Shown here: in pieces, positions 33,732 to 58,781 of the stretch
Numbering within the stretch: the stretch's first letter is position 1
Layout: the number at the start of each line of letters is the position of its first letter
Virus record (IMG/VR): IMGVR_UViG_2778261503_000006
Source: a virus
Taxonomy: Duplodnaviria; Heunggongvirae; Uroviricota; Caudoviricetes
Length of the DNA stretch: 64,000 nt
Direction: 5' to 3' (one strand)
Translations under genes and position numbers: made by a program
The notes under the pieces: generated by a model
The model's input: only the letters and a program-made list of their open reading frames with translations
Databases searched by the model: none
What the model was told of the DNA's origin: nothing

Positions 33732-33763
33732 TAACTTTAAATAATTGGCATTATTTAAAGTTA
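33732..33763. other. rox-like 32-bp recombination site (14-bp inverted arms, 4-bp spacer)
   Basis: taactttaaataat tggc attatttaaagtta is a perfect 14-4-14 palindrome; its reverse complement matches the rox site of the Dre recombinase as I recall it; ~150 bp upstream of the recombinase gene. Confidence 0.8.
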
Positions 33764-33915
33764 GGCTATAATTATGGGTAGATGATCAGTATTGACATCA
33801 CTGAAAATACGCGCCTCGAATCAAAGGCTTGAATCTTGAAAATTAACTTATAGCTACCCTGTCATTTTTATATTTTTCGCGTAGCGTTATCTGTATATAG
33901 AGGTTAAATAGTTTC

Positions 33916-34944
33916 ATGAGTGAATTAATTATCTCTGGCAGCTCCGGTGGTTTTCTGCGCAACATTGGCAAAGAGTACCAGGAGGCCGCAGAAAACTTTA
34001 TGCGGTTCATGAATGACCAGGGGGCTTATGCGCCGAATACTCTGCGCGACCTCCGGTTGGTGTTTCATTCATGGGCGCGCTGGTGTCACGCTCGCCAGCT
34101 TGCCTGGTTTCCGATCTCACCAGAAATGGCCCGCGAGTATTTTCTTCAGCTGCATGATGCCGATCTGGCTTCGACCACCATTGATAAGCACTACGCCATG
34201 CTGAATATGCTGCTTTCGCATTGTGGCCTTCCGCCACTTTCGGATGATAAAAGTGTTTCTCTGGCTATGCGGCGCATCCGGCGCGAAGCGGCAACTGAAA
34301 AAGGCGAACGAACAGGCCAGGCTATACCGCTTCGGTGGGACGATCTGAAACTGCTCGACGTCCTGTTGTCCAGGTCAGAACGGCTGGTGGACCTGCGCAA
34401 CCGGGCTTTTCTCTTTGTTGCATACAATACGCTGATGCGTATGTCGGAAATCTCGCGTATTCGTGTAGGAGATCTGGATCAAACAGGTGACACTGTCACG
34501 CTACATATTTCACACACGAAGACAATAACGACCGCCGCCGGGCTTGATAAGGTGCTTTCCCGTCGCACTACCGCTGTGCTGAATGACTGGCTGGATGTTT
34601 CCGGGCTTCGCGAACATCCTGACGCAGTGCTGTTCCCGCCGATACACCGTAGCAATAAGGCCAGGATCACGACAACGCCCCTTACTGCACCTGCAATGGA
34701 GAAAATATTCAGCGACGCCTGGGTGTTGCTGAATAAAAGAGATGCTACGCCAAACAAAGGAAGATACCGGACGTGGACCGGGCATAGTGCACGCGTCGGG
34801 GCCGCTATTGATATGGCTGAAAAGCAGGTGTCTATGGTGGAGATCATGCAGGAAGGAACCTGGAAGAAACCGGAAACACTTATGCGGTATCTTCGCCGTG
34901 GCGGCGTGTCTGTGGGGGCTAATAGCCGCCTGATGGATTCGTAA
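33916..34944 (+). CDS. dre: Cre-family tyrosine recombinase (Dre-like)
   Basis: 342 aa; SVSLAMRRIRRE, LRNRAFLFVAYNTLMRMSEISRIRVGDL and WTGHSARVGAAIDMAEKQVSMVEIMQEGTW align block-for-block with P1 Cre. Confidence 0.85.
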   Translation: MSELIISGSSGGFLRNIGKEYQEAAENFMRFMNDQGAYAPNTLRDLRLVFHSWARWCHARQLAWFPISPEMAREYFLQLHDADLASTTIDKHYAMLNMLLSHCGLPPLSDDKSVSLAMRRIRREAATEKGERTGQAIPLRWDDLKLLDVLLSRSERLVDLRNRAFLFVAYNTLMRMSEISRIRVGDLDQTGDTVTLHISHTKTITTAAGLDKVLSRRTTAVLNDWLDVSGLREHPDAVLFPPIHRSNKARITTTPLTAPAMEKIFSDAWVLLNKRDATPNKGRYRTWTGHSARVGAAIDMAEKQVSMVEIMQEGTWKKPETLMRYLRRGGVSVGANSRLMDS

Positions 34945-34963
34945 ATTAAATTTCTAACACATC
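34943..34963 (-). promoter_or_regulatory. operator-like motif (aaattaaatttctaacacatc)
   Basis: starts within the recombinase stop codon. Confidence 0.4.
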
Positions 34964-35017
34964 TTTTTAGATTAACGCCTTTGCTGTAAAGTACCCTCGC
35001 CTATTTAGGAGGGTGCT

Positions 35018-35362
35018 TTGCAGAGTCAAATCACGGAATCAAGACGCTTCAAGGTGGATGGTTACACCGTAACCTTCGCCGCTGGTGTTAAGAACAGTCA
35101 TGCTGTCGTTGTGTTCGGCATCATGACCGGGCTTGAGGCCGTCCCTGTGTTTACCCTCGAAAAAAACTGGCGAAATCTGGAGGAAGCAGAAAGCTACGTC
35201 CGGAAAGTAACCATCATTGCCGCCGAAAAACTCCTGGCCCACTATCAGGAAAATTATCGCACTATGGTCGAGAAGATTAATCTCGCTTTCACTCGCCCCA
35301 CTACCGGCTTTATTGCACCGGATACTAATGCCGGTCGATATCCTGCAAGGGGGTGTCGGTGA
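35018..35362 (+). CDS. hypothetical protein downstream of recombinase
   Basis: 114 aa from TTG 35018 with AGGAGGG RBS. Confidence 0.4.
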   Translation: MQSQITESRRFKVDGYTVTFAAGVKNSHAVVVFGIMTGLEAVPVFTLEKNWRNLEEAESYVRKVTIIAAEKLLAHYQENYRTMVEKINLAFTRPTTGFIAPDTNAGRYPARGCR

Positions 35363-35835
35363 AAACTTATTACCCATCTCTGAATTGTTACCCGTCTTCC
35401 TATCCAGAATTATCCGGGAAGCTGTTAGCTCTATTAGCTAAAGCACCTACGGAATGGTTTAAGCCAGTCGTTATCAATCCACACTTCCTGGGTTACGGAT
35501 CTGTTCGCACTCGTAACGAACTCAAAAACCTACTGGCGCATGGATTCATTCGACACCGTGCCGGGAAAGGCTATCAGTTAGCGATTGCGCCAGAAGAGGC
35601 CGTGCGGCTATTCGCATATCGTGACAGCCAGACAAAAACTCGGGTAATAGCTCAAATACTTCATAACGGCAGCACCTATGCCCGCCAGTTTGGCGGCGAC
35701 ACGTCGCAGTTCTTGCGGGCGGTGCGATCGCTGGATGAGCAAGGAGTTATTGAAAGTTCCTGTCTTCCTGTTCCTACCGTTCCACATATCAAACGTCGGG
35801 TTTACACCTTCACGCAGAGAGCTAAAAAACAATGA
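35353..35835 (+). CDS. hypothetical protein
   Basis: 160-aa ORF from GTG 35353. Confidence 0.4.
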   Translation: MSVKTYYPSLNCYPSSYPELSGKLLALLAKAPTEWFKPVVINPHFLGYGSVRTRNELKNLLAHGFIRHRAGKGYQLAIAPEEAVRLFAYRDSQTKTRVIAQILHNGSTYARQFGGDTSQFLRAVRSLDEQGVIESSCLPVPTVPHIKRRVYTFTQRAKKQ

Positions 35836-36326
35836 TTTACGTAAAAGTGAAACGCCTACATCCGGCAGCAAAACTTCCAGCTTATGCCACCTCCGGATCG
35901 GCGGCGATGGATTTTGAGGCTGTTGAAATAAAACCATGCGTCGATAGCAATGGTGCAATTTCCTCAAGCTGGTGGGTGTATACCGGACTGGCTATGGAGA
36001 TCCCGCCCGGCTGGTGTCTGAAACTCTATCCGCGATCAGGATTGGGCTGCAAAAAACATACTCGCCTGGCTAACTGCGTAGGAATTATCGACTCCGATTA
36101 TCGCGGCGAAATCATGGCAAAACTGATTACTGATCCCGGCGGGGAAGGCGTTTGTCTCAAGCCTGGAATGGCTGTCATGCAAGGAATTTTTGAGCGTGTT
36201 GAACAAGTCTCACTAGTCGAGGTTGAGGAACTCAACGAAACGGAGCGTGGTGCTGGTGGCTTTGGTAGCACATCGGAAGGCCACTTTGAAATTAAGCGTT
36301 CACCGCTTCAGTACGAAAAGTTATAA
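35832..36326 (+). CDS. dut: dUTP diphosphatase (dUTPase)
   Basis: 164 aa; GIIDSDYRGEI and C-terminal RGAGGFGSTS motifs. Confidence 0.8.
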   Translation: MIYVKVKRLHPAAKLPAYATSGSAAMDFEAVEIKPCVDSNGAISSSWWVYTGLAMEIPPGWCLKLYPRSGLGCKKHTRLANCVGIIDSDYRGEIMAKLITDPGGEGVCLKPGMAVMQGIFERVEQVSLVEVEELNETERGAGGFGSTSEGHFEIKRSPLQYEKL

Positions 36327-36340
36327 GCAGAGAAAAGACT

Positions 36341-36781
36341 ATGAATAACATGGCAACGAAAGAGCTTTTTAAGTTCCGTCCCAAATACAAAGCTCACAAA
36401 AAAAATGGAACCACGGTCATCATTACGGATGACAACGGCGTGATGATTAATCTTACCGGGAGCGTAACTATTTCTGCTGGTGGCATCACCACCCAGCAAG
36501 AAGAAATCGACCTTGAAGCAGCCGACTTTTCAGACGCGCTGATGTGGCTGAAGGAAGGCAAGAAAGTTGCTCGACGCGGGTGGAACGGCGAAAACCAATT
36601 CTGCTGGCTGGTTCCTGAAGGACAGTACCCGGCACGAATGGAAGCCATTAAGGGATATTTCCCCGGCGACCTCGTTCCGTATGGTGCTTATTTCGCCTTA
36701 AAAAATGCACAAGGTGTAGTTGTTCCGTGGGTGCCTTCAGTTGGCGACCTGCTGGCCTGTGACTGGTTTGTTGTGGAGTGA
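36341..36781 (+). CDS. DUF2829-domain protein (Tad2-like fold candidate)
   Basis: 146 aa; FSDALMWLKEGKKVARRGWNGENQF...ACDWFVVE matches the DUF2829 hallmark as I recall it. Confidence 0.6.
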   Translation: MNNMATKELFKFRPKYKAHKKNGTTVIITDDNGVMINLTGSVTISAGGITTQQEEIDLEAADFSDALMWLKEGKKVARRGWNGENQFCWLVPEGQYPARMEAIKGYFPGDLVPYGAYFALKNAQGVVVPWVPSVGDLLACDWFVVE

Positions 36782-36787
36782 TTTGAC

Positions 36788-37555
36788 ATGGAAAGCACTA
36801 AAACAATTCAATACCGCTTGCGTAATGGCCTGCTGGTGGCTGTTAACGCCGACATGTCACTGCCGTTTGACACGATTGAACGCACTATCATGACGTATCT
36901 CGGCTTTAATGAAGAGCTGAATGAAGAGCATGGCGTAGCTATATGGAGTGATGCAGACAGCGGCGTTCGTCGTTACATCACCGCCAGGGGCAAAGACTAC
37001 TCTCTGGAAGAACTGTTTGCCCTTGCGCAGTCTTTCGAATGTGTAGCATTAGACCTGTTTAATGATCCTGCTATAGCGCAACGACTTATACGCGAGCTTG
37101 GGCTATCCGTTACACCAATTATATTTAAAAATGGCAGCCTGACTGGCACATGGCGCGTAGAACGCATCTCAAACTACCTTCCATATAACCGACAGTTAAA
37201 TGGAGTAATCTCCGGCGTTAACCAGCCCGTAGCGTGTGAAAATGTAAACCTAGTTGTCGCTGTTTTGGCAACCGCATGTCGTGTTATCGGTTTGGCTAAA
37301 CAGGCATTTATTCATTTCCCAAATGGTGCAGAAGGTAGCGCAGAGATTATCGCGTGTGATTTCGAATTTACCTGGATGCTACGCGAATATCTGGACCAAA
37401 CAGTATTCCGTGCCGAAGAACTGGATATGTATATCACGTCAACGATTCCAGACGATGTGCGAGCTGAAGCAATCGCTACAGCCAGGGCGAAATGCCGTGC
37501 GGCGATTGCAGAACAGGCCAAAGAAGAAGTTAAGGAAGTGGCAGATGGCGACTAA
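36788..37555 (+). CDS. hypothetical protein
   Basis: 255-aa ORF. Confidence 0.45.
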   Translation: MESTKTIQYRLRNGLLVAVNADMSLPFDTIERTIMTYLGFNEELNEEHGVAIWSDADSGVRRYITARGKDYSLEELFALAQSFECVALDLFNDPAIAQRLIRELGLSVTPIIFKNGSLTGTWRVERISNYLPYNRQLNGVISGVNQPVACENVNLVVAVLATACRVIGLAKQAFIHFPNGAEGSAEIIACDFEFTWMLREYLDQTVFRAEELDMYITSTIPDDVRAEAIATARAKCRAAIAEQAKEEVKEVADGD

Positions 37556-38639
37556 GAGCAATATTTATAAAGATCCGCGCTGGCTGTCGCTGGTGGAGAA
37601 ATATAAAGACAATTGGGTACTGGCAGCAAAAGAATTGTTTGATATTGATTTAAGCCACCAGCAACAACAAATTGTTGAAGCTATACAGCCCAATAATGCA
37701 AAAGCTACTGTCACCACTCCGTATGGGATCGGACGACCGCAAGTGCTTGCTGTTATTAGTACCCTTTATACGATTATGTATCCTGATTCCCGGACAGTAA
37801 TTGTTTATCCAAAATCAAATGTTTGCAAAAGAGGAATTGTTGCATATGTGTGGCAATGTTGGGAGGCATTGCTGAAAAAACAACCTTTTATCATTGAGTA
37901 TTTTAAGGTCGGTGATAGCGGTCTGATGTTCAATGAATTTTGGGGAATGTGCTTTTGTAACTTCCGCCTTAACTATGAAGATAGCATTGCAGGTCACTAC
38001 GCCGACCATCTTTTATTCATTATTGTGGATTCCGCACATATCAGCGATCGGGCATACAGCATTGTGTGGGCAAGCATGACTAGTGGTGATTCACGCATAT
38101 TGCTCACTTCAATTCCGTCACCAGAGGAAATAGGCTTTTTTTATGATTCACATCATGGACGTGCTTTAGCTGAAGATAATCCGAGTGGTGTATATAAAGC
38201 CATTAAGCTGAGTGCGGAGGATTCACCATTTATTACCCAAGAATATCTTGATCATTTTGCCGAAAGGTATGGCGGGCGAAATAGTGATGACTATCGTCGT
38301 ATGATTCTTGGTGAGTTCCCTGGTATTAGGGAGGCTGTTCTTGAATCAGATATGCCGAAGACAATGCGCTTTTCGATGCCTGATGGTAGTGAATGGACAA
38401 TACCATTACGAGTGATAGCCCGGCATCATGCGCAGCACCACGCCAAAAAACATGGCGTCACGACATTAGAATGGTTGAAATCGCACACCATTCCACTCTT
38501 CACTGCAGATCACAATGCTATCGTTGAGTGGGCAAAAACAATTCCGTGGGAGAATGTCGCTGAATACGCCCACATGCTAAAACCGCCGAAAGACAGGCAA
38601 GAAATTAGCTGGCTGACAGCAGAAAAAATCATTGAGTGA
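37545..38639 (+). CDS. terminase large-subunit ATPase-domain paralogue with degenerate catalytic motifs
   Basis: 365 aa from ATG 37545; aligns with 31056..32456 (SHQQQQI, HLLFIIVDSAH vs HLLLILDEASG, GFFYDSHHGRA vs GYFYDSHHSRA) but Walker A is TTPYGIGRP and no nuclease domain follows. Confidence 0.6.
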   Translation: MATKSNIYKDPRWLSLVEKYKDNWVLAAKELFDIDLSHQQQQIVEAIQPNNAKATVTTPYGIGRPQVLAVISTLYTIMYPDSRTVIVYPKSNVCKRGIVAYVWQCWEALLKKQPFIIEYFKVGDSGLMFNEFWGMCFCNFRLNYEDSIAGHYADHLLFIIVDSAHISDRAYSIVWASMTSGDSRILLTSIPSPEEIGFFYDSHHGRALAEDNPSGVYKAIKLSAEDSPFITQEYLDHFAERYGGRNSDDYRRMILGEFPGIREAVLESDMPKTMRFSMPDGSEWTIPLRVIARHHAQHHAKKHGVTTLEWLKSHTIPLFTADHNAIVEWAKTIPWENVAEYAHMLKPPKDRQEISWLTAEKIIE

Positions 38640-38645
38640 TAGTAA

Positions 38646-38675
38646 GAAGCCCGCCTGGTTGAGCGGGCTTCTTTT
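38646..38675. terminator. bidirectional terminator between convergent genes
   Basis: gaagcccgc...gcgggcttc hairpin followed by tttt. Confidence 0.7.
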
Positions 38676-52583: not shown

Positions 52584-52799
52584 ATGGCTACTATCCCTAC
52601 CCCAACTCATTCTGAATTTATCTGGCGTTTCTATTCCTGCCAAAAGCACCTGTATATCTGCGTCATGGCTGCTACCGAATCAGAGGCGCGCTCATACCTT
52701 CCCGAAGAACCCTGCATTTTTGCTGCTCGCTTCACTCTTGATGCGATGGAGATCCTCAATTACTGGAATCTGCCGATGAACTGCGTGGAGGTGCGCTGA
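52584..52799 (+). CDS. icd: Icd-like small protein (second copy)
   Basis: 71 aa; SEFIWRFYSCQKH...AATESEARSYLPEEPCIFAARF; TGATG overlap with the ant gene. Confidence 0.55.
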   Translation: MATIPTPTHSEFIWRFYSCQKHLYICVMAATESEARSYLPEEPCIFAARFTLDAMEILNYWNLPMNCVEVR

Positions 52800-53740
52800 T
52801 GAATCTGTCCATCTCTCAAAAAGCGACAATGACCAGCATTGAGATCGCGGAGCTGGTAGGAAGTCGCCCAGATAGTGTGAAGAGAACTATCGAAACACTG
52901 GCTAAAAAGAGTGTGATCCAATTTCCACAATCTGTGGAAATTGAAAATAAACAATCAGTTGGCCCTCGTCGATTTTCCAAGGCTTACATCTTTGAAGGCG
53001 AACAAGGAAAACGAGACAGCATCATTGTCGTCGCGCAGCTCTCTCCGGAATTCACCGCCCGGCTGGTGGACCGCTGGCGCGAACTGGAGAATGCCCGGGT
53101 ACAGTTAAAATCAAAAGCCGAAATCCTGGCTGAAATGGCGCAAATGCATCTTGAGCATGAACGCCGGATCAACGCCGTAAATGCCCAGGTAGCCGAGGTA
53201 TCAGCACAAGTATCGATGGTCGCTGAAACCGTCGAGCAAATAAAGAAAGGCAATATTCCGGAAGGCTACATTGGCTACCGCCAGTTGGCGGCGAAATGTG
53301 GCCTGACTGAAGCCAAATGTCGCAACCTGGTTAACGCTTACCGGATTCCCACCGATACGCATGAGTTTTTAACTCCAGATGGTTTGCTTGCGCGACGCTC
53401 CATTGTGGCCCTGGCCCCCTTCCGGAAAGCCTTTAAGCAGGTGATGTCAGAGGCAGAACCACGCAATAAACGCTGGTATCATCCAAAGATGGGGATGTTT
53501 CAGGCAATCCACCATCCTGTGCCTGAAAGTCCAAAGGCAAACCTGTCGTTGCATACCGCCAGAGAGAGGATTAAAACAGGCTATGCAATCGTATGCCGTC
53601 GAGCATCCTGGCCTGAAGGTGTATGGGTGTGGCCCGAAGGTGGATCACGAAAGCACTGGCGCACTATCCGGGATGGGAAAATCCATGCGATTGATTTAGC
53701 TCCAGAGGATGTTGTTGCTACGGACTGGATTGTTAGTTAA
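52799..53740 (+). CDS. ant: phage antirepressor (Rha/Ant family) fused to a C-terminal DUF2829-like domain
   Basis: 313 aa; N-terminal MTSIEIAELVGSRPDSVKRTIE; C-terminal YAIVCRRASWPEGVWVWPE...ATDWIVS equals the separate 66-aa ORF of the first copy. Confidence 0.7.
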   Translation: MNLSISQKATMTSIEIAELVGSRPDSVKRTIETLAKKSVIQFPQSVEIENKQSVGPRRFSKAYIFEGEQGKRDSIIVVAQLSPEFTARLVDRWRELENARVQLKSKAEILAEMAQMHLEHERRINAVNAQVAEVSAQVSMVAETVEQIKKGNIPEGYIGYRQLAAKCGLTEAKCRNLVNAYRIPTDTHEFLTPDGLLARRSIVALAPFRKAFKQVMSEAEPRNKRWYHPKMGMFQAIHHPVPESPKANLSLHTARERIKTGYAIVCRRASWPEGVWVWPEGGSRKHWRTIRDGKIHAIDLAPEDVVATDWIVS

Positions 53741-53799
53741 TTACTGTTGCCCCGGCCTGTCCGGGGCTTTAACTACTAAATAACCGGATTCTCCGCACG

Positions 53800-54087
53800 A
53801 TGAAGAAAATAGATTTCACTTACTCTGCTGCCACAATCCAGCGACGTTTCAGTCTCATAAGGGAAGTGGAACTATCAAAAAACTGCTATCAAATTCTACT
53901 GGATGAAGAGTTTTCACTGATGGTTATAGCAGAAAAATTGGCTATGCCGAATGACCGACACAAGGTCATAGCCAGCCTCGATCTGGTGACAAACAGATAC
54001 TGGGAGACAGAGGAACTACATGAAGCGGGAGTAATTCGTGGCCTGATGGAGAATTCCGTTCCCCGTCGTTATAGTGTGATGAGCTAA
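53800..54087 (+). CDS. hypothetical protein
   Basis: 95-aa ORF. Confidence 0.4.
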   Translation: MKKIDFTYSAATIQRRFSLIREVELSKNCYQILLDEEFSLMVIAEKLAMPNDRHKVIASLDLVTNRYWETEELHEAGVIRGLMENSVPRRYSVMS

Positions 54088-54413
54088 AACTCACCTGCAC
54101 ACCGTCAGGCCCAACGCAAATAAATGAAACATCCCGCTCTTGGTGTTTCAGTGAAATAGCTCATTTTTAGCTTGGAAGCAACTTGATTATGAGCTAAGCC
54201 TGACATACACTTCAGCGAGAAAATGATCAAGTTAAAGACACAAAAGCTCTGTTTTAACAGAGCTTTTGTGTCTTTAAAACATAGATATCATGCCATATAT
54301 AGTGCCAAAATTAGTTTTAGACACTATATATATTATAAAAGGTAAAAACCGCTTCTACTTTTAACATCCACAGAAAAAAGAAAGCGGTTATAGATAAGGG
54401 AAAAGGAGGGGTT

Positions 54414-54719
54414 ATGCTCTATGCGGTTCCTCAGCAAGCTTCTGATTCTTTGAAGTTAATCAAGACTGTACTTCAGCTTATAGCATCTCAACAAGAAGTG
54501 TCACAGCAGTTAAAGTTACGGGTTTATGAGGTGATCAGAGAAGCCTCAAACTTAAGTGTAGATAAAGGTGATCAATTACAGATTCCTTCTCACAGAGAGT
54601 CCATCTCGCTCGCGGTAGAGATACGCCACACTAAGGCGCTCGCCCAGGTGCTAACCAAAGTAACTAGCGAAGATATGTTAGAACCCGTAATGGCCCGGAA
54701 TGTATTAGAGTACATTTAA
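54414..54719 (+). CDS. small helical protein, first gene of AT-rich three-gene operon
   Basis: 101 aa; ATG 54414 with AAAAGGAGGGG RBS. Confidence 0.5.
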   Translation: MLYAVPQQASDSLKLIKTVLQLIASQQEVSQQLKLRVYEVIREASNLSVDKGDQLQIPSHRESISLAVEIRHTKALAQVLTKVTSEDMLEPVMARNVLEYI

Positions 54720-55792
54720 TGCTTGCATTTACACAACTTACATTAGTTCGAAATAAGCTAAGGGAGATATCAGAATCTCCCTATTTTTCTAAAGACATGC
54801 ATGAATATCTTGCTGTTCTACAAGAAGCGGTAGATAAGCTCTATGAAAACCATGTGAATGTTGCTGATAAAATAATTGCGGATTGTACTTTTTTTATCAC
54901 CGATGCAGTTAATTTTTTCACTGGCAGTACTACAAAGAAAATTCCCTACGAGATTGTTTATTGCTTAAATGATGCCTGTAAAAAATGGATAAGTGAAAAA
55001 ACACTTATAACCACAGCCCTATCTCCAGATATGCATGGGTTTTATTTTAAGTCTGTAAACAAGAATTTGTATTCTTTATTTGATGAAGTTTTAAATGTCA
55101 AATTCGAGGTCGAATTAATTCAGATTTCATTACCTGAAATGTACAGAAGACGACCATTATGCTCTATACCTTTATATCACGAATTGGGACATTTCGTTGA
55201 TATTAGCAAAGGTATTTCTGAGCTTGCCTGTCTTAACTATCGTTCCAAGGACAAAGGCACACTTCCAGGACCAGAATGGAGTAATCTACCTGATGTTATT
55301 TGGATAAATCATTGCAGAGAATATTTTGCAGATCTATTTAGTGCCCAATTTATTGGAAAAAGTGGGGTAGATTTCTTATACAAATTAGCTGGCTCTCATC
55401 CTGCAAGCTATACTCACCCATCCACAGAAGATAGAGTTAAAATTGTAAGCGACTTTTTGAACAAAGTGGAAAATCCAGTTGTTGGCATGTTCAATGCTGT
55501 GATATCAGCCTTACATAAGGGTGGGCAGATTATTTCTCCTTGTTTGACATTGCCGACACCTTTGCTTGATGTGAAATCAGCTTTTGATAATGTGCGTCCT
55601 TTTGTTATTCGCGACCACAATGAAATGCATGCTTTTATTAACAGCAGCTGGCAGTACTTATGCTCTGAATGGGAAAAACCTACGGGTATATGGTCTGGGT
55701 TGTCAAAAGAAGCCATAGAAAAAACTATAAATGATTTGGTTGAAAAATCGATTCGAAACGTAATGATTCTTGAAAAATGGAGTGCACAATGA
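54719..55792 (+). CDS. HExxH zinc-metallopeptidase-like protein
   Basis: 357 aa; HELGH at nt 55178-55192; AT-rich; translationally coupled to both neighbours. Confidence 0.6.
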   Translation: MLAFTQLTLVRNKLREISESPYFSKDMHEYLAVLQEAVDKLYENHVNVADKIIADCTFFITDAVNFFTGSTTKKIPYEIVYCLNDACKKWISEKTLITTALSPDMHGFYFKSVNKNLYSLFDEVLNVKFEVELIQISLPEMYRRRPLCSIPLYHELGHFVDISKGISELACLNYRSKDKGTLPGPEWSNLPDVIWINHCREYFADLFSAQFIGKSGVDFLYKLAGSHPASYTHPSTEDRVKIVSDFLNKVENPVVGMFNAVISALHKGGQIISPCLTLPTPLLDVKSAFDNVRPFVIRDHNEMHAFINSSWQYLCSEWEKPTGIWSGLSKEAIEKTINDLVEKSIRNVMILEKWSAQ

Positions 55793-56406
55793 ATCTCCTA
55801 AGCAAAGCTGAATTGCTGCAATATTATGAATCAGAAGAACCTGAGTCGTTGTTCATTGAACCTCTTCTAAATAAAAACCAAATTGGAAACTTCACCATAG
55901 ACCTTAGACTTGGTTACGATTTTTTAGTGTCTATTATGACAAGGAAGCCGTCAATAGAGTTAATTCCCTCAAAAAACAATGATACTCATCAACCAATCAG
56001 AACATTTTTCCAGGAAACAAGGAGAGATCTTGGGGATAGGTTCATTGTTTACCCGAATCAAGTGGTACTGGCAACAACATTAGAATATGTTTGTTTGCCA
56101 CCAGATTGCTACGCTGATGTATTGTCCAGAAGCAGCTATACAAGGCTTGGTCTTTCATTAAATACCATGATACAACCAGGGTACAGAGGCTGTATATCTT
56201 TAGAGTTATTTAATCATGGGAATAGCCCTGTAGAACTTATTGTTGGATCTCGCATATGTCAAATTCGTATATTCAAGAATGAAACTGTCGGTGAATACAT
56301 AAGTCATGAGTCTCACAGGAAATATTTCGGAAATGTGAGGCCAACCGTCTCAGCAGCAGAAAGTGATAATGAATTAAATATGCTGGAAAAGATCCGACAA
56401 AAATGA
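55777..56406 (+). CDS. dCTP deaminase / dUTPase-fold enzyme (Dcd-like); alternative start ATG 55789
   Basis: IDLRLG, SSYTRLGL, PGYRGCISLELFN, GSRICQIRIF blocks align with E. coli Dcd. Confidence 0.7.
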   Translation: MECTMNLLSKAELLQYYESEEPESLFIEPLLNKNQIGNFTIDLRLGYDFLVSIMTRKPSIELIPSKNNDTHQPIRTFFQETRRDLGDRFIVYPNQVVLATTLEYVCLPPDCYADVLSRSSYTRLGLSLNTMIQPGYRGCISLELFNHGNSPVELIVGSRICQIRIFKNETVGEYISHESHRKYFGNVRPTVSAAESDNELNMLEKIRQK

Positions 56407-56494
56407 AAACTTTAATGCTTTATATTATAAAAACATACAGCGACAACGCAGCCACCAAGATGTGTTGTCGCCATGTTCAAAGTGCTAACACAGT

Positions 56495-56887
56495 TTAAAA
56501 ATCACCTGCGCGCTGTTTTTCAAGCACAGATTTAACATTTGGCACTTTCCCTTTAAAAGAATGGAAAGTGCCACATTTTTCTGTTTTAACTTCGCGCAGA
56601 GCTTCGCCATCGGCGTTCTGCCATTGATGGGATAATGTCATATCACCGCGAGAAGGAACATCCAGCGAGTACAGCGTGTAAGTTCCCCCCATCTCCGCAT
56701 ACTCCTGGAACACATAGCTCATTACGTCAGATTCAGTTTTTCGGTGTACGTTATCAACCTTATTCCCATTCAGAAATATGGCATCTGGATAGATTTTTAT
56801 ATCAAACCGACCGCACTTAACTTGTAAATTTCCGGCGCTCGCGATCAAAGGGAAAGACGCCAGTAAAGCAATTGTCAATCTTTTCAA
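56495..56887 (-). CDS. secreted small protein with signal peptide
   Basis: 130 aa; MKRLTIALLASFPLIASA signal peptide. Confidence 0.5.
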   Translation of the reverse strand: MKRLTIALLASFPLIASAGNLQVKCGRFDIKIYPDAIFLNGNKVDNVHRKTESDVMSYVFQEYAEMGGTYTLYSLDVPSRGDMTLSHQWQNADGEALREVKTEKCGTFHSFKGKVPNVKSVLEKQRAGDF

Positions 56888-56907
56888 TTCTGCCTCCGCT
56901 GCGTAAC

Positions 56908-57531
56908 TTATTGCCCGTATTTTTTACACCATTGCTCTGCCATTTGTTTGGCTAAAGGCCCGGCTACTGCACTGTATTCTGCTGTTTTACTTTGCACACA
57001 TGAAGCAGATGGTTTTTTATTTCGCTGCTCGGTTAGTTTGCGCTCATAAGCCATCATGCTATCGAACCCGGCAATATCACTTTGGCGAAGCATTCCCTTT
57101 TTAACCAAAAATTGCTGCCCCTCGGGCACCAACGCAAGCATAAAAAGTGGTTGCAATAACTCACCTAATCCTTGCTGGCGATACACTTCGAATTGCTGCC
57201 ATCCCTGACTTAATCTGGAAAGAGTATCTTTGGTTGAATAACCTGTTTTTGTTATAGCTTTGTCCGTCAGATATGCTGTATATGCAAAAACGCAAAAGTC
57301 AGTTTTACCAATAAACTGAGTTCCAACAGGCCGTAATGGAATGCCCTCCCTCTTGCAAAAGTCCATAATGGCCGCTTGTGAATGATCCCCACCAGCATTA
57401 TTCATAACCTGCTGCCCTGCCCTGAATTGTGCAGGTAACGCAGTTGCATTGGCAGTATTAGCAGATACGCATCCCAACATAGCCGCGAGCGCGGCCCCTA
57501 AAACCCTTAACTTCACTACACCATCCTTCAT
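56908..57531 (-). CDS. secreted/periplasmic protein with signal peptide
   Basis: 207 aa; LRVLGAALAAMLGCVSANTANA N-terminus. Confidence 0.5.
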   Translation of the reverse strand: MKDGVVKLRVLGAALAAMLGCVSANTANATALPAQFRAGQQVMNNAGGDHSQAAIMDFCKREGIPLRPVGTQFIGKTDFCVFAYTAYLTDKAITKTGYSTKDTLSRLSQGWQQFEVYRQQGLGELLQPLFMLALVPEGQQFLVKKGMLRQSDIAGFDSMMAYERKLTEQRNKKPSASCVQSKTAEYSAVAGPLAKQMAEQWCKKYGQ

Positions 57532-57799
57532 GTAAACAAAATGAAGTTTTATGTTATAAAAACAATTAACTACATCAACATGATTTAGGCCAAATTTCGG
57601 TCAAAAAATAAAATCCACAAAAAGTGGTTGACACTATTTTGGAAATCACAAACTGCACATAATCCATCGCGCTAACGGCTCCCGTTGAAGGTTCTTTTGA
57701 CGATTAACTTTCAGCCGAAGCGCGGTAGGGAGTCATAACGCCAAAGCAGGCCGCCATGTGCGGCCTTTTTTTGTATCCGTCATCCGTGGAGGAAGGAAA

Positions 57800-58453
57800 A
57801 TGGAAAAGATCGCAATATTCAGCCTGACCACCAGCAAGCCTCAAATGCTCACTGCAATACTGAAAGACGGTGCTCTCATTATTAACGAAGTAAAACCCCT
57901 TCCCGCGTCAGCATTGGAGCAAAAGCAAAAAATTCCTCCAGCTATAGCAGCCCTGCGGAAAAGCAAATTTAAGGTTCTAGTAGACGAAATTACGCCAACG
58001 ATCTCCGCTGGCACCGGAGCAAGCCAGGTGACTCTCAAGACCCGTCATGCCGATGGTAGAGCAGCAATCATCGTTGGGATGGAAAGATACAGAGAGTTAA
58101 AACTCCAGAAACTATTATCCCTGCCGCAAAATAACAAAGGTGCTTTCGAAATCCCCGACTCTATCGTTGATACCGAATACAACGGTAACGGAGAAGAAGT
58201 CTACAGGGTGAACTGGCAGGATATCAGGCCGGAGCATATTTTGATGATCCTGTGTTGCTACGCGACCGTATACCACAACGTTGCCAGTGCAGATTATGTA
58301 GAGCAGATGACCGGTACAGTCGAGAAAGAGCAAAAAACAGGCATACTCGCTTCGTTCCTGTCCATTATTGGGCATGAAAAAGTTAAAGCAGGCACCTCCC
58401 AGCCAAAGTCACTGGCTGGGAAAGAAGTTGATGAAGATACCGTGATACTTTGA
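57800..58453 (+). CDS. hypothetical protein
   Basis: 217 aa from ATG 57800 with GGAGGAAGG RBS. Confidence 0.45.
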   Translation: MEKIAIFSLTTSKPQMLTAILKDGALIINEVKPLPASALEQKQKIPPAIAALRKSKFKVLVDEITPTISAGTGASQVTLKTRHADGRAAIIVGMERYRELKLQKLLSLPQNNKGAFEIPDSIVDTEYNGNGEEVYRVNWQDIRPEHILMILCCYATVYHNVASADYVEQMTGTVEKEQKTGILASFLSIIGHEKVKAGTSQPKSLAGKEVDEDTVIL

Positions 58454-58781
58454 TCACATTAGTAGCTTTGTTAACTCCCTCAATACCAGGTAGAAGAGTA
58501 ACAAAAATATTGACGCGAGTATTTGAGTGGTCAATGAAGCGTTCATAAACAGATCAATTAGCATTAATAATTCGAATATAACATCCATGTCATTCACTCC
58601 GTTTAATTTTTAATCTAATGCCAGCAAATGAAGCTGGCCCCCGCACAAAGATTAATGAAAGTCACTTGTCACCAGTGAGGGGATTTATGAACCACATCCC
58701 CCTGAACTGGTGGCCTGTCTGTTTCTCACATTTCACACCCTGCATACAGTTTCCCCCAGGTTATGACTGAGAGGCTTTGTT

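Follow-up and report, generated by a model that had tools for sequence, protein, structure and literature searches.

The closest described relative of the locus analyzed here is dut of Escherichia phage D6, a phage-plasmid of the P1 family. The dut of D6-type phage-plasmids is already known and annotated: the D6 records name it "dut: probable dUTPase" (AY753669, a partial record) and "deoxyuridine 5'-triphosphate nucleotidohydrolase" (D6_115 in the complete genome, MF356679), and RefSeq labels it "dut: dUTP diphosphatase" (WP_000640907) in the Escherichia coli plasmid p95_MLI121 (NZ_CP117014). A literature search that did not include the original D6 and Dre papers found no experimental work on D6 dut. 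Non-enzymatic roles have been described for other phage dUTPases, for example T5 Dut and the dUTPases of staphylococcal phages, which derepress staphylococcal pathogenicity islands (SaPIs) via Stl (PMC12524310). The DNA considered here is a stretch of 64,000 nucleotides from a virus of the Caudoviricetes (IMG/VR record IMGVR_UViG_2778261503_000006), referred to as the window. Its open reading frame (ORF) at 35832–36326 is 100% identical to the dut of NZ_CP117014. As judged by sequence comparison, this ORF very probably encodes the Dut that is resident in the D6 branch of the P1 phage-plasmid family—a backbone gene of the lineage and not the partner of a dCTP deaminase (Dcd)-like gene located 18 kb away, with which an earlier note had joined it into one conversion of dCTP to dUMP.

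The dut gene and its motifs are arranged as follows; motif invariance was judged in an alignment of the window Dut and 18 homologues (A2).

35832–36326, plus strand: dut, ORF of a 164-amino acid trimeric-type dUTPase, from ATG to stop (stop codon included), assigned by family matches
35886–35915, plus strand: dUTPase motif I, ATSGSAAMDF, with Asp27; G22 and D27 invariant in A2
36030–36047, plus strand: dUTPase motif II, PRSGLG; R68, S69, and G70 invariant in A2
36081–36107, plus strand: dUTPase motif III, GIIDSDYRG, with catalytic Asp87/Asp89 and Tyr90
36165–36182, plus strand: dUTPase motif IV, atypical, GMAVMQ; Gln117 kept, Ala114 at the usual Arg site
36246–36275, plus strand: dUTPase motif V, RGAGGFGSTS, holding a Chi site (GCTGGTGG) at 36252–36259
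36276–36323, plus strand: 16 C-terminal amino acids that follow motif V (EGHFEIKRSPLQYEKL), a tail peculiar to D6-like alleles

The assignment as a dUTPase, made before from the letters of the sequence, is confirmed by matches to Pfam PF00692 (54.2 bits; cutoff 22), to the NCBIfam equivalog NF001862 "dUTP diphosphatase" (121.5 bits; cutoff 103), to TIGR00576 (119.2 bits; cutoff 102.55), and to the dUTPase family PHROG 135 (E 5e-62). Fifty-eight solved dUTPase chains match at E ≤ 1e-3; the best of them is 8y1q (E 2.3e-25, covering Dut residues 2–148), and E. coli Dut in the PDB matches at E 2e-21. The protein is a full-length member of the homotrimeric family, in which the Asp and Tyr of motif III, the Gln of motif IV, and the P-loop-like segment of motif V are intact. 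Residues I86, D87, D89, Y90, and G92 of motif III as well as Gln117 are invariant in A2, and RGxxGFGS(T/S) together with the other key residues of motifs I, II, III, and V is invariant both in A2 and in nine D6-like alleles, among which all motif residues are conserved. The earlier description of the motifs as canonical thus holds for motifs I, II, III, and V and fails for motif IV, where Gln is kept and Arg is replaced by Ala. Among the 120 best database hits, this position is Arg in 95 and Ala in 13, and the Ala variant is confined to a clade of D6-like, Klebsiella, and Raoultella phage-plasmids that includes Escherichia and Salmonella elements. In a structural and mutational study of African swine fever virus (ASFV) and swine dUTPases, the motif IV Gln is a phosphate contact whose exchange (Q120A) lowers efficiency more than 100-fold, and the motif IV Arg is not among the ligand contacts named (PMC7948977). 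All substrate-contact residues named there, including this Gln, are conserved in the window Dut; since the study names Gln and not Arg, the exchange of Arg for Ala is a caveat and not a sign of inactivity. The C-terminal tail has equal length in 9/9 D6-like alleles compared and is absent in the Klebsiella and Raoultella relatives and in E. coli Dut in A2.

The gene is under purifying selection: pairwise ratios of nonsynonymous to synonymous substitution (dN/dS) among the nine D6-like alleles are 0.09–0.24, with dS up to 0.47. Its guanine–cytosine (GC) content of 49.5% matches the backbone. Going by the established role of trimeric dUTPases, the predicted Dut trimer would hydrolyze dUTP to dUMP and pyrophosphate. 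The resulting low dUTP/dTTP ratio would keep uracil out of the DNA of the element during plasmid or lytic replication, and the dUMP would be fed to thymidylate synthesis, in each case on top of the Dut of the host.

Genes for tail, baseplate, and capsid, phd-doc, a repressor of the c1 type, and a Cre-like recombinase place the element among the D6-like phage-plasmids of the P1 family. The region around dut is 97.8% identical to phage D6 (MF356679). Plasmid NZ_CP117014 is 100% identical to the window in the two regions compared, 34900–37600 and 54300–56500, and about 97.5% identical across the wider stretch 52700–58500. The view of the element as a phage-plasmid, already implied by the earlier note, is thereby borne out. 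The Dcd-like gene belongs to an accessory cassette in this element:

54085–56516, plus strand: accessory cassette of three genes, not linked to dut
54414–54719, plus strand: cassette ORF of 101 amino acids
54719–55792, plus strand: cassette M48-like, zinc-peptidase-like HExxH protein of 357 amino acids
55777 or 55789 to 56406, plus strand: cassette Dcd-fold deaminase

In the first alternative to a resident backbone Dut, dut and the Dcd-like gene would form an element-encoded route from dCTP via dUTP to dUMP that favors dTTP, and the Dcd-like gene would be metabolic and not defensive. For this reading speak the prediction of both activities on one element, the Ser, Arg, and Glu positions of Dcd that are kept in the Dcd-like protein, and the established pathway in which one enzyme makes what the other takes as substrate. 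The distribution of the two genes contradicts it. Alone, dut matches 129 plasmids of PLSDB (127 at ≥80% coverage) from Escherichia, Salmonella, and Shigella, and in addition phage D6; the block of dre, two ORFs, and dut is present at full length in 123 PLSDB plasmids. P1-type plasmids match in the recombinase only (~79% identity), and the dre-to-dut block therefore marks the D6 branch. The region 54300–56500, by comparison, matches just 12 plasmids. The cassette finds no match in 50,697 phage records searched by blastn in distant mode, and phage D6 is therefore without it. Phage-plasmids that lack the operon at 54414–56406 thus retain dut, as seen in about 117 plasmids and D6.

The 12 cassette carriers were each checked and all contain dut (12/12), including MK356557, whose assembly is noisy and has indels. 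The identity of their dut to the window allele spans about 90–100%, and the cassette is 99.4–100% identical in 9/12. A near-identical cassette beside dut alleles that differ by up to about 6–10% indicates that the cassette moved between diverged backbones. The two genes lie in different transcription units, and across the related elements dcd and dut are not co-inherited: dut is near-universal in the lineage and independent of the Dcd-like operon. Since dut is inherited independently of a cassette 18 kb away, a dedicated dCTP-to-dUMP pathway made up of the two is not supported. The host, moreover, already supplies dcd and dut, E. coli having a dut of its own.

The anatomy of the insertion also runs counter to the coupled route. 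The cassette has a length of 2.4 kb and a GC content of 37% versus 46–49% in its flanks, and at either end stands one copy of an imperfect 21-bp direct repeat (TAAAACTCACCTGCACACCGT / TAAAAATCACCTGCGCGCTGT), at 54085–54105 and 56496–56516, the two copies being identical at 17/21 positions. To its left lie icd/ant and a pmgF-like gene, to its right two sim-region ORFs and mat. These flanks occur in 129 plasmids and the full span in 12; NZ_CP116989 carries a clean empty site with one repeat copy. Other cargo occupies the same locus elsewhere: orf80 and a simB-like gene in D6, and another gene pair in NZ_OY754396.

The Dcd-fold ORF itself, placed at 55777–56406 by the earlier note, is well founded, the likelier start being the ATG at 55789. 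It matches Pfam DCD (PF22769) with 107 bits and TIGR02274 dCTP_deam with 113.3 bits (cutoff 92.8). In the HMMER alignment its segments SRSSYTRLG and SLELFN keep the Ser, Arg, and Glu positions of E. coli Dcd (1xs1), which we take to be the catalytic residues. By these matches the cassette enzyme is assigned to the Dcd family, within which its sequence does not separate a monofunctional enzyme from a bifunctional DCD-DUT. The 357-amino acid protein matches no Pfam family above threshold, and sub-threshold Peptidase_M48 matches occur in 26/44 of its homologues. Invariant in all 44 are H154-E155-x-x-H158, E201-x-x-x-D205, and H233-P234...R239. A profile of this HExxH family finds nothing among PDB sequences at E ≤ 1, and Foldseek against the PDB with a model of the protein (predicted local distance difference test score, 93) gives no significant match. 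In PADLOC-DB 2.0, including its "dCTP deaminase" and AvcD models, no family is matched at E ≤ 0.01 by the three cassette proteins or by Dut. A literature search found no description of the three-gene cassette, and neither dut nor dcd is named in a report on Salmonella D6-like plasmids, among them the cassette carrier pSL26_91 (PMC6799933).

The same gene order—an ORF of ~100–108 amino acids, the HExxH protein, and the Dcd-like protein—recurs in Proteus, Aeromonas, Rhizobium, Dickeya, Bradyrhizobium, Geobacter, and Methylophilus, and none of seven such three-gene loci (0/7) has a dut within 8–9 kb. The pair of HExxH and Dcd-like genes was surveyed in 60 loci from different species, of which 58 were evaluable. 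In 56 of these 58 the Dcd-like gene lies directly downstream of the HExxH gene on the same strand, and a Dut-like gene within 6 kb of the pair is found in 0/60. The Dcd-like gene is locked to the HExxH protein and the small ORF in these 56/58 loci and never to dut. Neighbors of the module include QatABCD with an integrase, type I restriction-modification genes with an integrase, and an IS200-type transposase. A ThiF/E1 gene lies within a few kilobases of the module in 20/67 loci (L025, L026, L028, L034, L041–L047, L051, L053, L061, L062, L068, L073, L075, L081, and L084), which also carry JAB, prokaryotic E2, multi-ubiquitin/BubE, and M78 (CapP-like) genes, that is, Bub-type ubiquitin-like operons. 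The Bub preprint mentions no deaminase. Such surroundings, too, oppose a metabolic pairing with dut.

Taken with the distribution, these data make the coupled dCTP-to-dUMP route very improbable. The joint unit proposed by the earlier note did not hold up, with dut near-universal in the lineage and the cassette in 12 plasmids; nor does dut bear on whether the Dcd-like gene remodels nucleotide pools or serves defense. The presence of dut cannot be used as evidence for a metabolic Dcd-like gene, and setting it aside removes a confound when the cassette is assessed. Distribution, GC content, empty site, and conserved partners point instead to an independent mobile module with a defense-island lifestyle. 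The lack of a PADLOC match, the mobile contexts, and the conserved partners together make a self-contained conflict or defense module likelier than a metabolic partnership with dut, and the comparison favors reading the cassette as a separately acquired mobile module of the defense-island kind. Mechanistically, it may act by dCTP depletion that is gated by the peptidase-like and the small protein. On a broader and tentative view, which we regard as possible at best, this would be an undescribed three-gene conflict module of Proteobacteria, Bacteroidota, and Leptospirales, often near Bub-type operons and CapP-like regulators, with a Dcd-fold effector that depletes dCTP on phage attack; the backbone Dut in its Tad2 operon would be an unrelated replication or counter-defense gene that at most mops up dUTP.

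In a second alternative, the two genes would act in opportunistic synergy although not inherited together: backbone and host Dut of the 12 carriers would clear the dUTP made by the Dcd-fold effector and so limit uracil damage to the resident element, and the depletion of dCTP would stop an invading phage. The two reactions are compatible, the contexts of the cassette suggest a defense role, and an intact dut accompanies it in every carrier. This co-presence, however, is uninformative because dut is near-universal in the lineage, and the module occurs without a neighboring dut in 60 + 7 other loci. We consider such synergy improbable, and a resident Dut inherited apart from the cassette stays the preferred reading.

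The neighborhood of dut features the following genes:

33916–34944, plus strand: dre, Cre-like tyrosine recombinase (Pfam Phage_integrase), first gene of the putative dut transcription unit
35018–35835, plus strand: two conserved ORFs of 114 and about 158–160 amino acids (PHROGs 1968 and 6669, families of unknown function)
36341–36781, plus strand: DUF2829/Tad2-family gene directly downstream of dut (Pfam PF11195, 81.6 bits; cutoff 25)

These genes form a tight string on one strand: c1, followed by dre, orf114, orf160, dut, the DUF2829/Tad2-like gene, an isaA-like gene, and orf364. The counterpart of dre in D6 is D6_118, "similar to P1 cre," and the start codon of dut overlaps the stop codon of orf160 (ATGA). 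The sole strong promoter-like site lies upstream of dre (TTGGCA-16-TATAAT, 33745–33772, a consensus match), and a terminator-like hairpin follows orf364 at 38653–38668. A Raoultella element (L016) has the same order of c1, recombinase, two ORFs, and dut, at 67% protein identity. Control of dut by C1 via P1-type operators was considered and dropped, the operator ATTGCTCTAATAAATTT having 0 matches in the window at ≤3 mismatches. Longest-ORF and RefSeq starts differ for the Dcd-like gene (55777 versus 55789), orf160 (35353 versus 35359), and orf364 (37254 versus 37545); the RefSeq starts are likelier and give 4-nucleotide overlaps of the ATGA type with the preceding genes.

The protein encoded after dut matches ModTad2 (PDB 9eib, E 8e-21) and Tad2 (8v3e, E 1.1e-20) over the whole 89-amino acid domain, and AcrIIA7 at E 1e-10. 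By these matches it is a homologue of the anti-Thoeris sponge Tad2 (DUF2829). Its N-terminal part varies in length across D6-like plasmids, from 146 to ~225 amino acids. Two same-strand Chi sites (GCTGGTGG) lie at 36252–36259, in motif V of dut, and at 36476–36483, in the Tad2-like gene, both within 10-bp repeats (TGCTGGTGGC); the whole window holds 45 Chi sites, 30 on the plus and 15 on the minus strand. A 224-bp deletion between the Chi-containing repeats yields an in-frame dut::Tad2 fusion of 241 amino acids without the FGSTS of motif V, which is present on at least six independent contigs (e.g., L017:4001–4726).

This neighborhood bears on a third alternative, in which the Dut of the D6 clade is mainly a moonlighting or counter-defense protein—for example a dUTP-binding signaling protein or a guard against the dUTP that dCTP-deaminase defenses make—in an anti-defense operon with its Tad2 neighbor, and catalysis is secondary. 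The strong Tad2 homologue next door, the recurrent in-frame fusions that delete part of motif V, the clade-specific loss of the motif IV Arg, and the conserved clade-specific C-terminal tail are in line with it, as is the precedent of non-enzymatic phage dUTPases (PMC12524310). On the other side, every substrate contact of PMC7948977 is conserved and the motif IV Arg is not among them, and A2 shows nothing like the large "motif VI" insertion of the staphylococcal enzymes. A deletion between the two 10-bp repeats that contain Chi accounts for the fusion, which may be accidental. Intact alleles far outnumber the altered ones (clusters of 506, 36, and 117 sequences versus 15 and 25), and the Raoultella relative has a dut without a Tad2 neighbor. 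A mainly non-enzymatic role is therefore unlikely, and the reading as an enzymatic backbone Dut is retained.

Several points weigh against this reading of dut as a lineage backbone enzyme. The plasmids were counted in separate BLAST searches, with set membership checked record by record for the 12 carriers. Variants that lose motif V persist in some D6-like plasmids, as the fusion P0124 (15-sequence cluster; 6 contigs) and as the frameshifted P0125 (cluster of 25), which implies that full Dut activity is not indispensable. The lack of the common Arg in motif IV could reduce catalytic efficiency. That a second dut copy beside that of the host brings a selective benefit is presumed, and what suggests a single operon from dre to orf364 is close packing together with consensus promoter and terminator matches. 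Overall, the dUTPase looks like an ordinary backbone gene of replication hygiene, and the finding as first stated adds little. The leads that emerge are a D6-clade Dut without the motif IV Arg and a Dut located beside, and sometimes fused to, an anti-defense protein of the Tad2 family.

Compared with known systems, the dut of phage D6 is the same gene, with 98.8% DNA identity and the same place after dre and two small ORFs. In motif V the two alleles differ by one residue: RGAGG in the window and RGDGG in D6. E. coli Dut (1dud/1rn8) is of similar size, aligns over its full length, and shares motifs I, II, III, and V and the Gln of motif IV. It differs by an identity of ~41%; in addition, the window Dut features Ala for the motif IV Arg, a loop between motifs I and II that is longer by a few residues, and the 16-amino acid C-terminal tail. 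The signaling dUTPases of staphylococcal phages phi11 and 80alpha are likewise phage-encoded trimeric dUTPases on a temperate element and serve as a lead only. A signaling Dut of the staphylococcal type was rejected for the window: the large "motif VI" insertion is absent in A2, and no Stl-like partner was identified.

For the cassette, the systems to compare are the nucleotide-depletion deaminases, which feature a zinc cytidine-deaminase fold and an N-terminal kinase/P-loop domain. The cassette enzyme, unlike these, has the Dcd/dUTPase fold (PF22769, TIGR02274), and it is always accompanied by a small ORF and an M48-like HExxH protein. Shared with them are the mobile, defense-island-like contexts, and the predicted deamination of dCTP by the cassette enzyme would likewise deplete dCTP, as in the nucleotide-depletion dCTP deaminases (Tal et al., bioRxiv 10.1101/2021.04.26.441389) and AvcD (10.1101/2021.03.31.437871).

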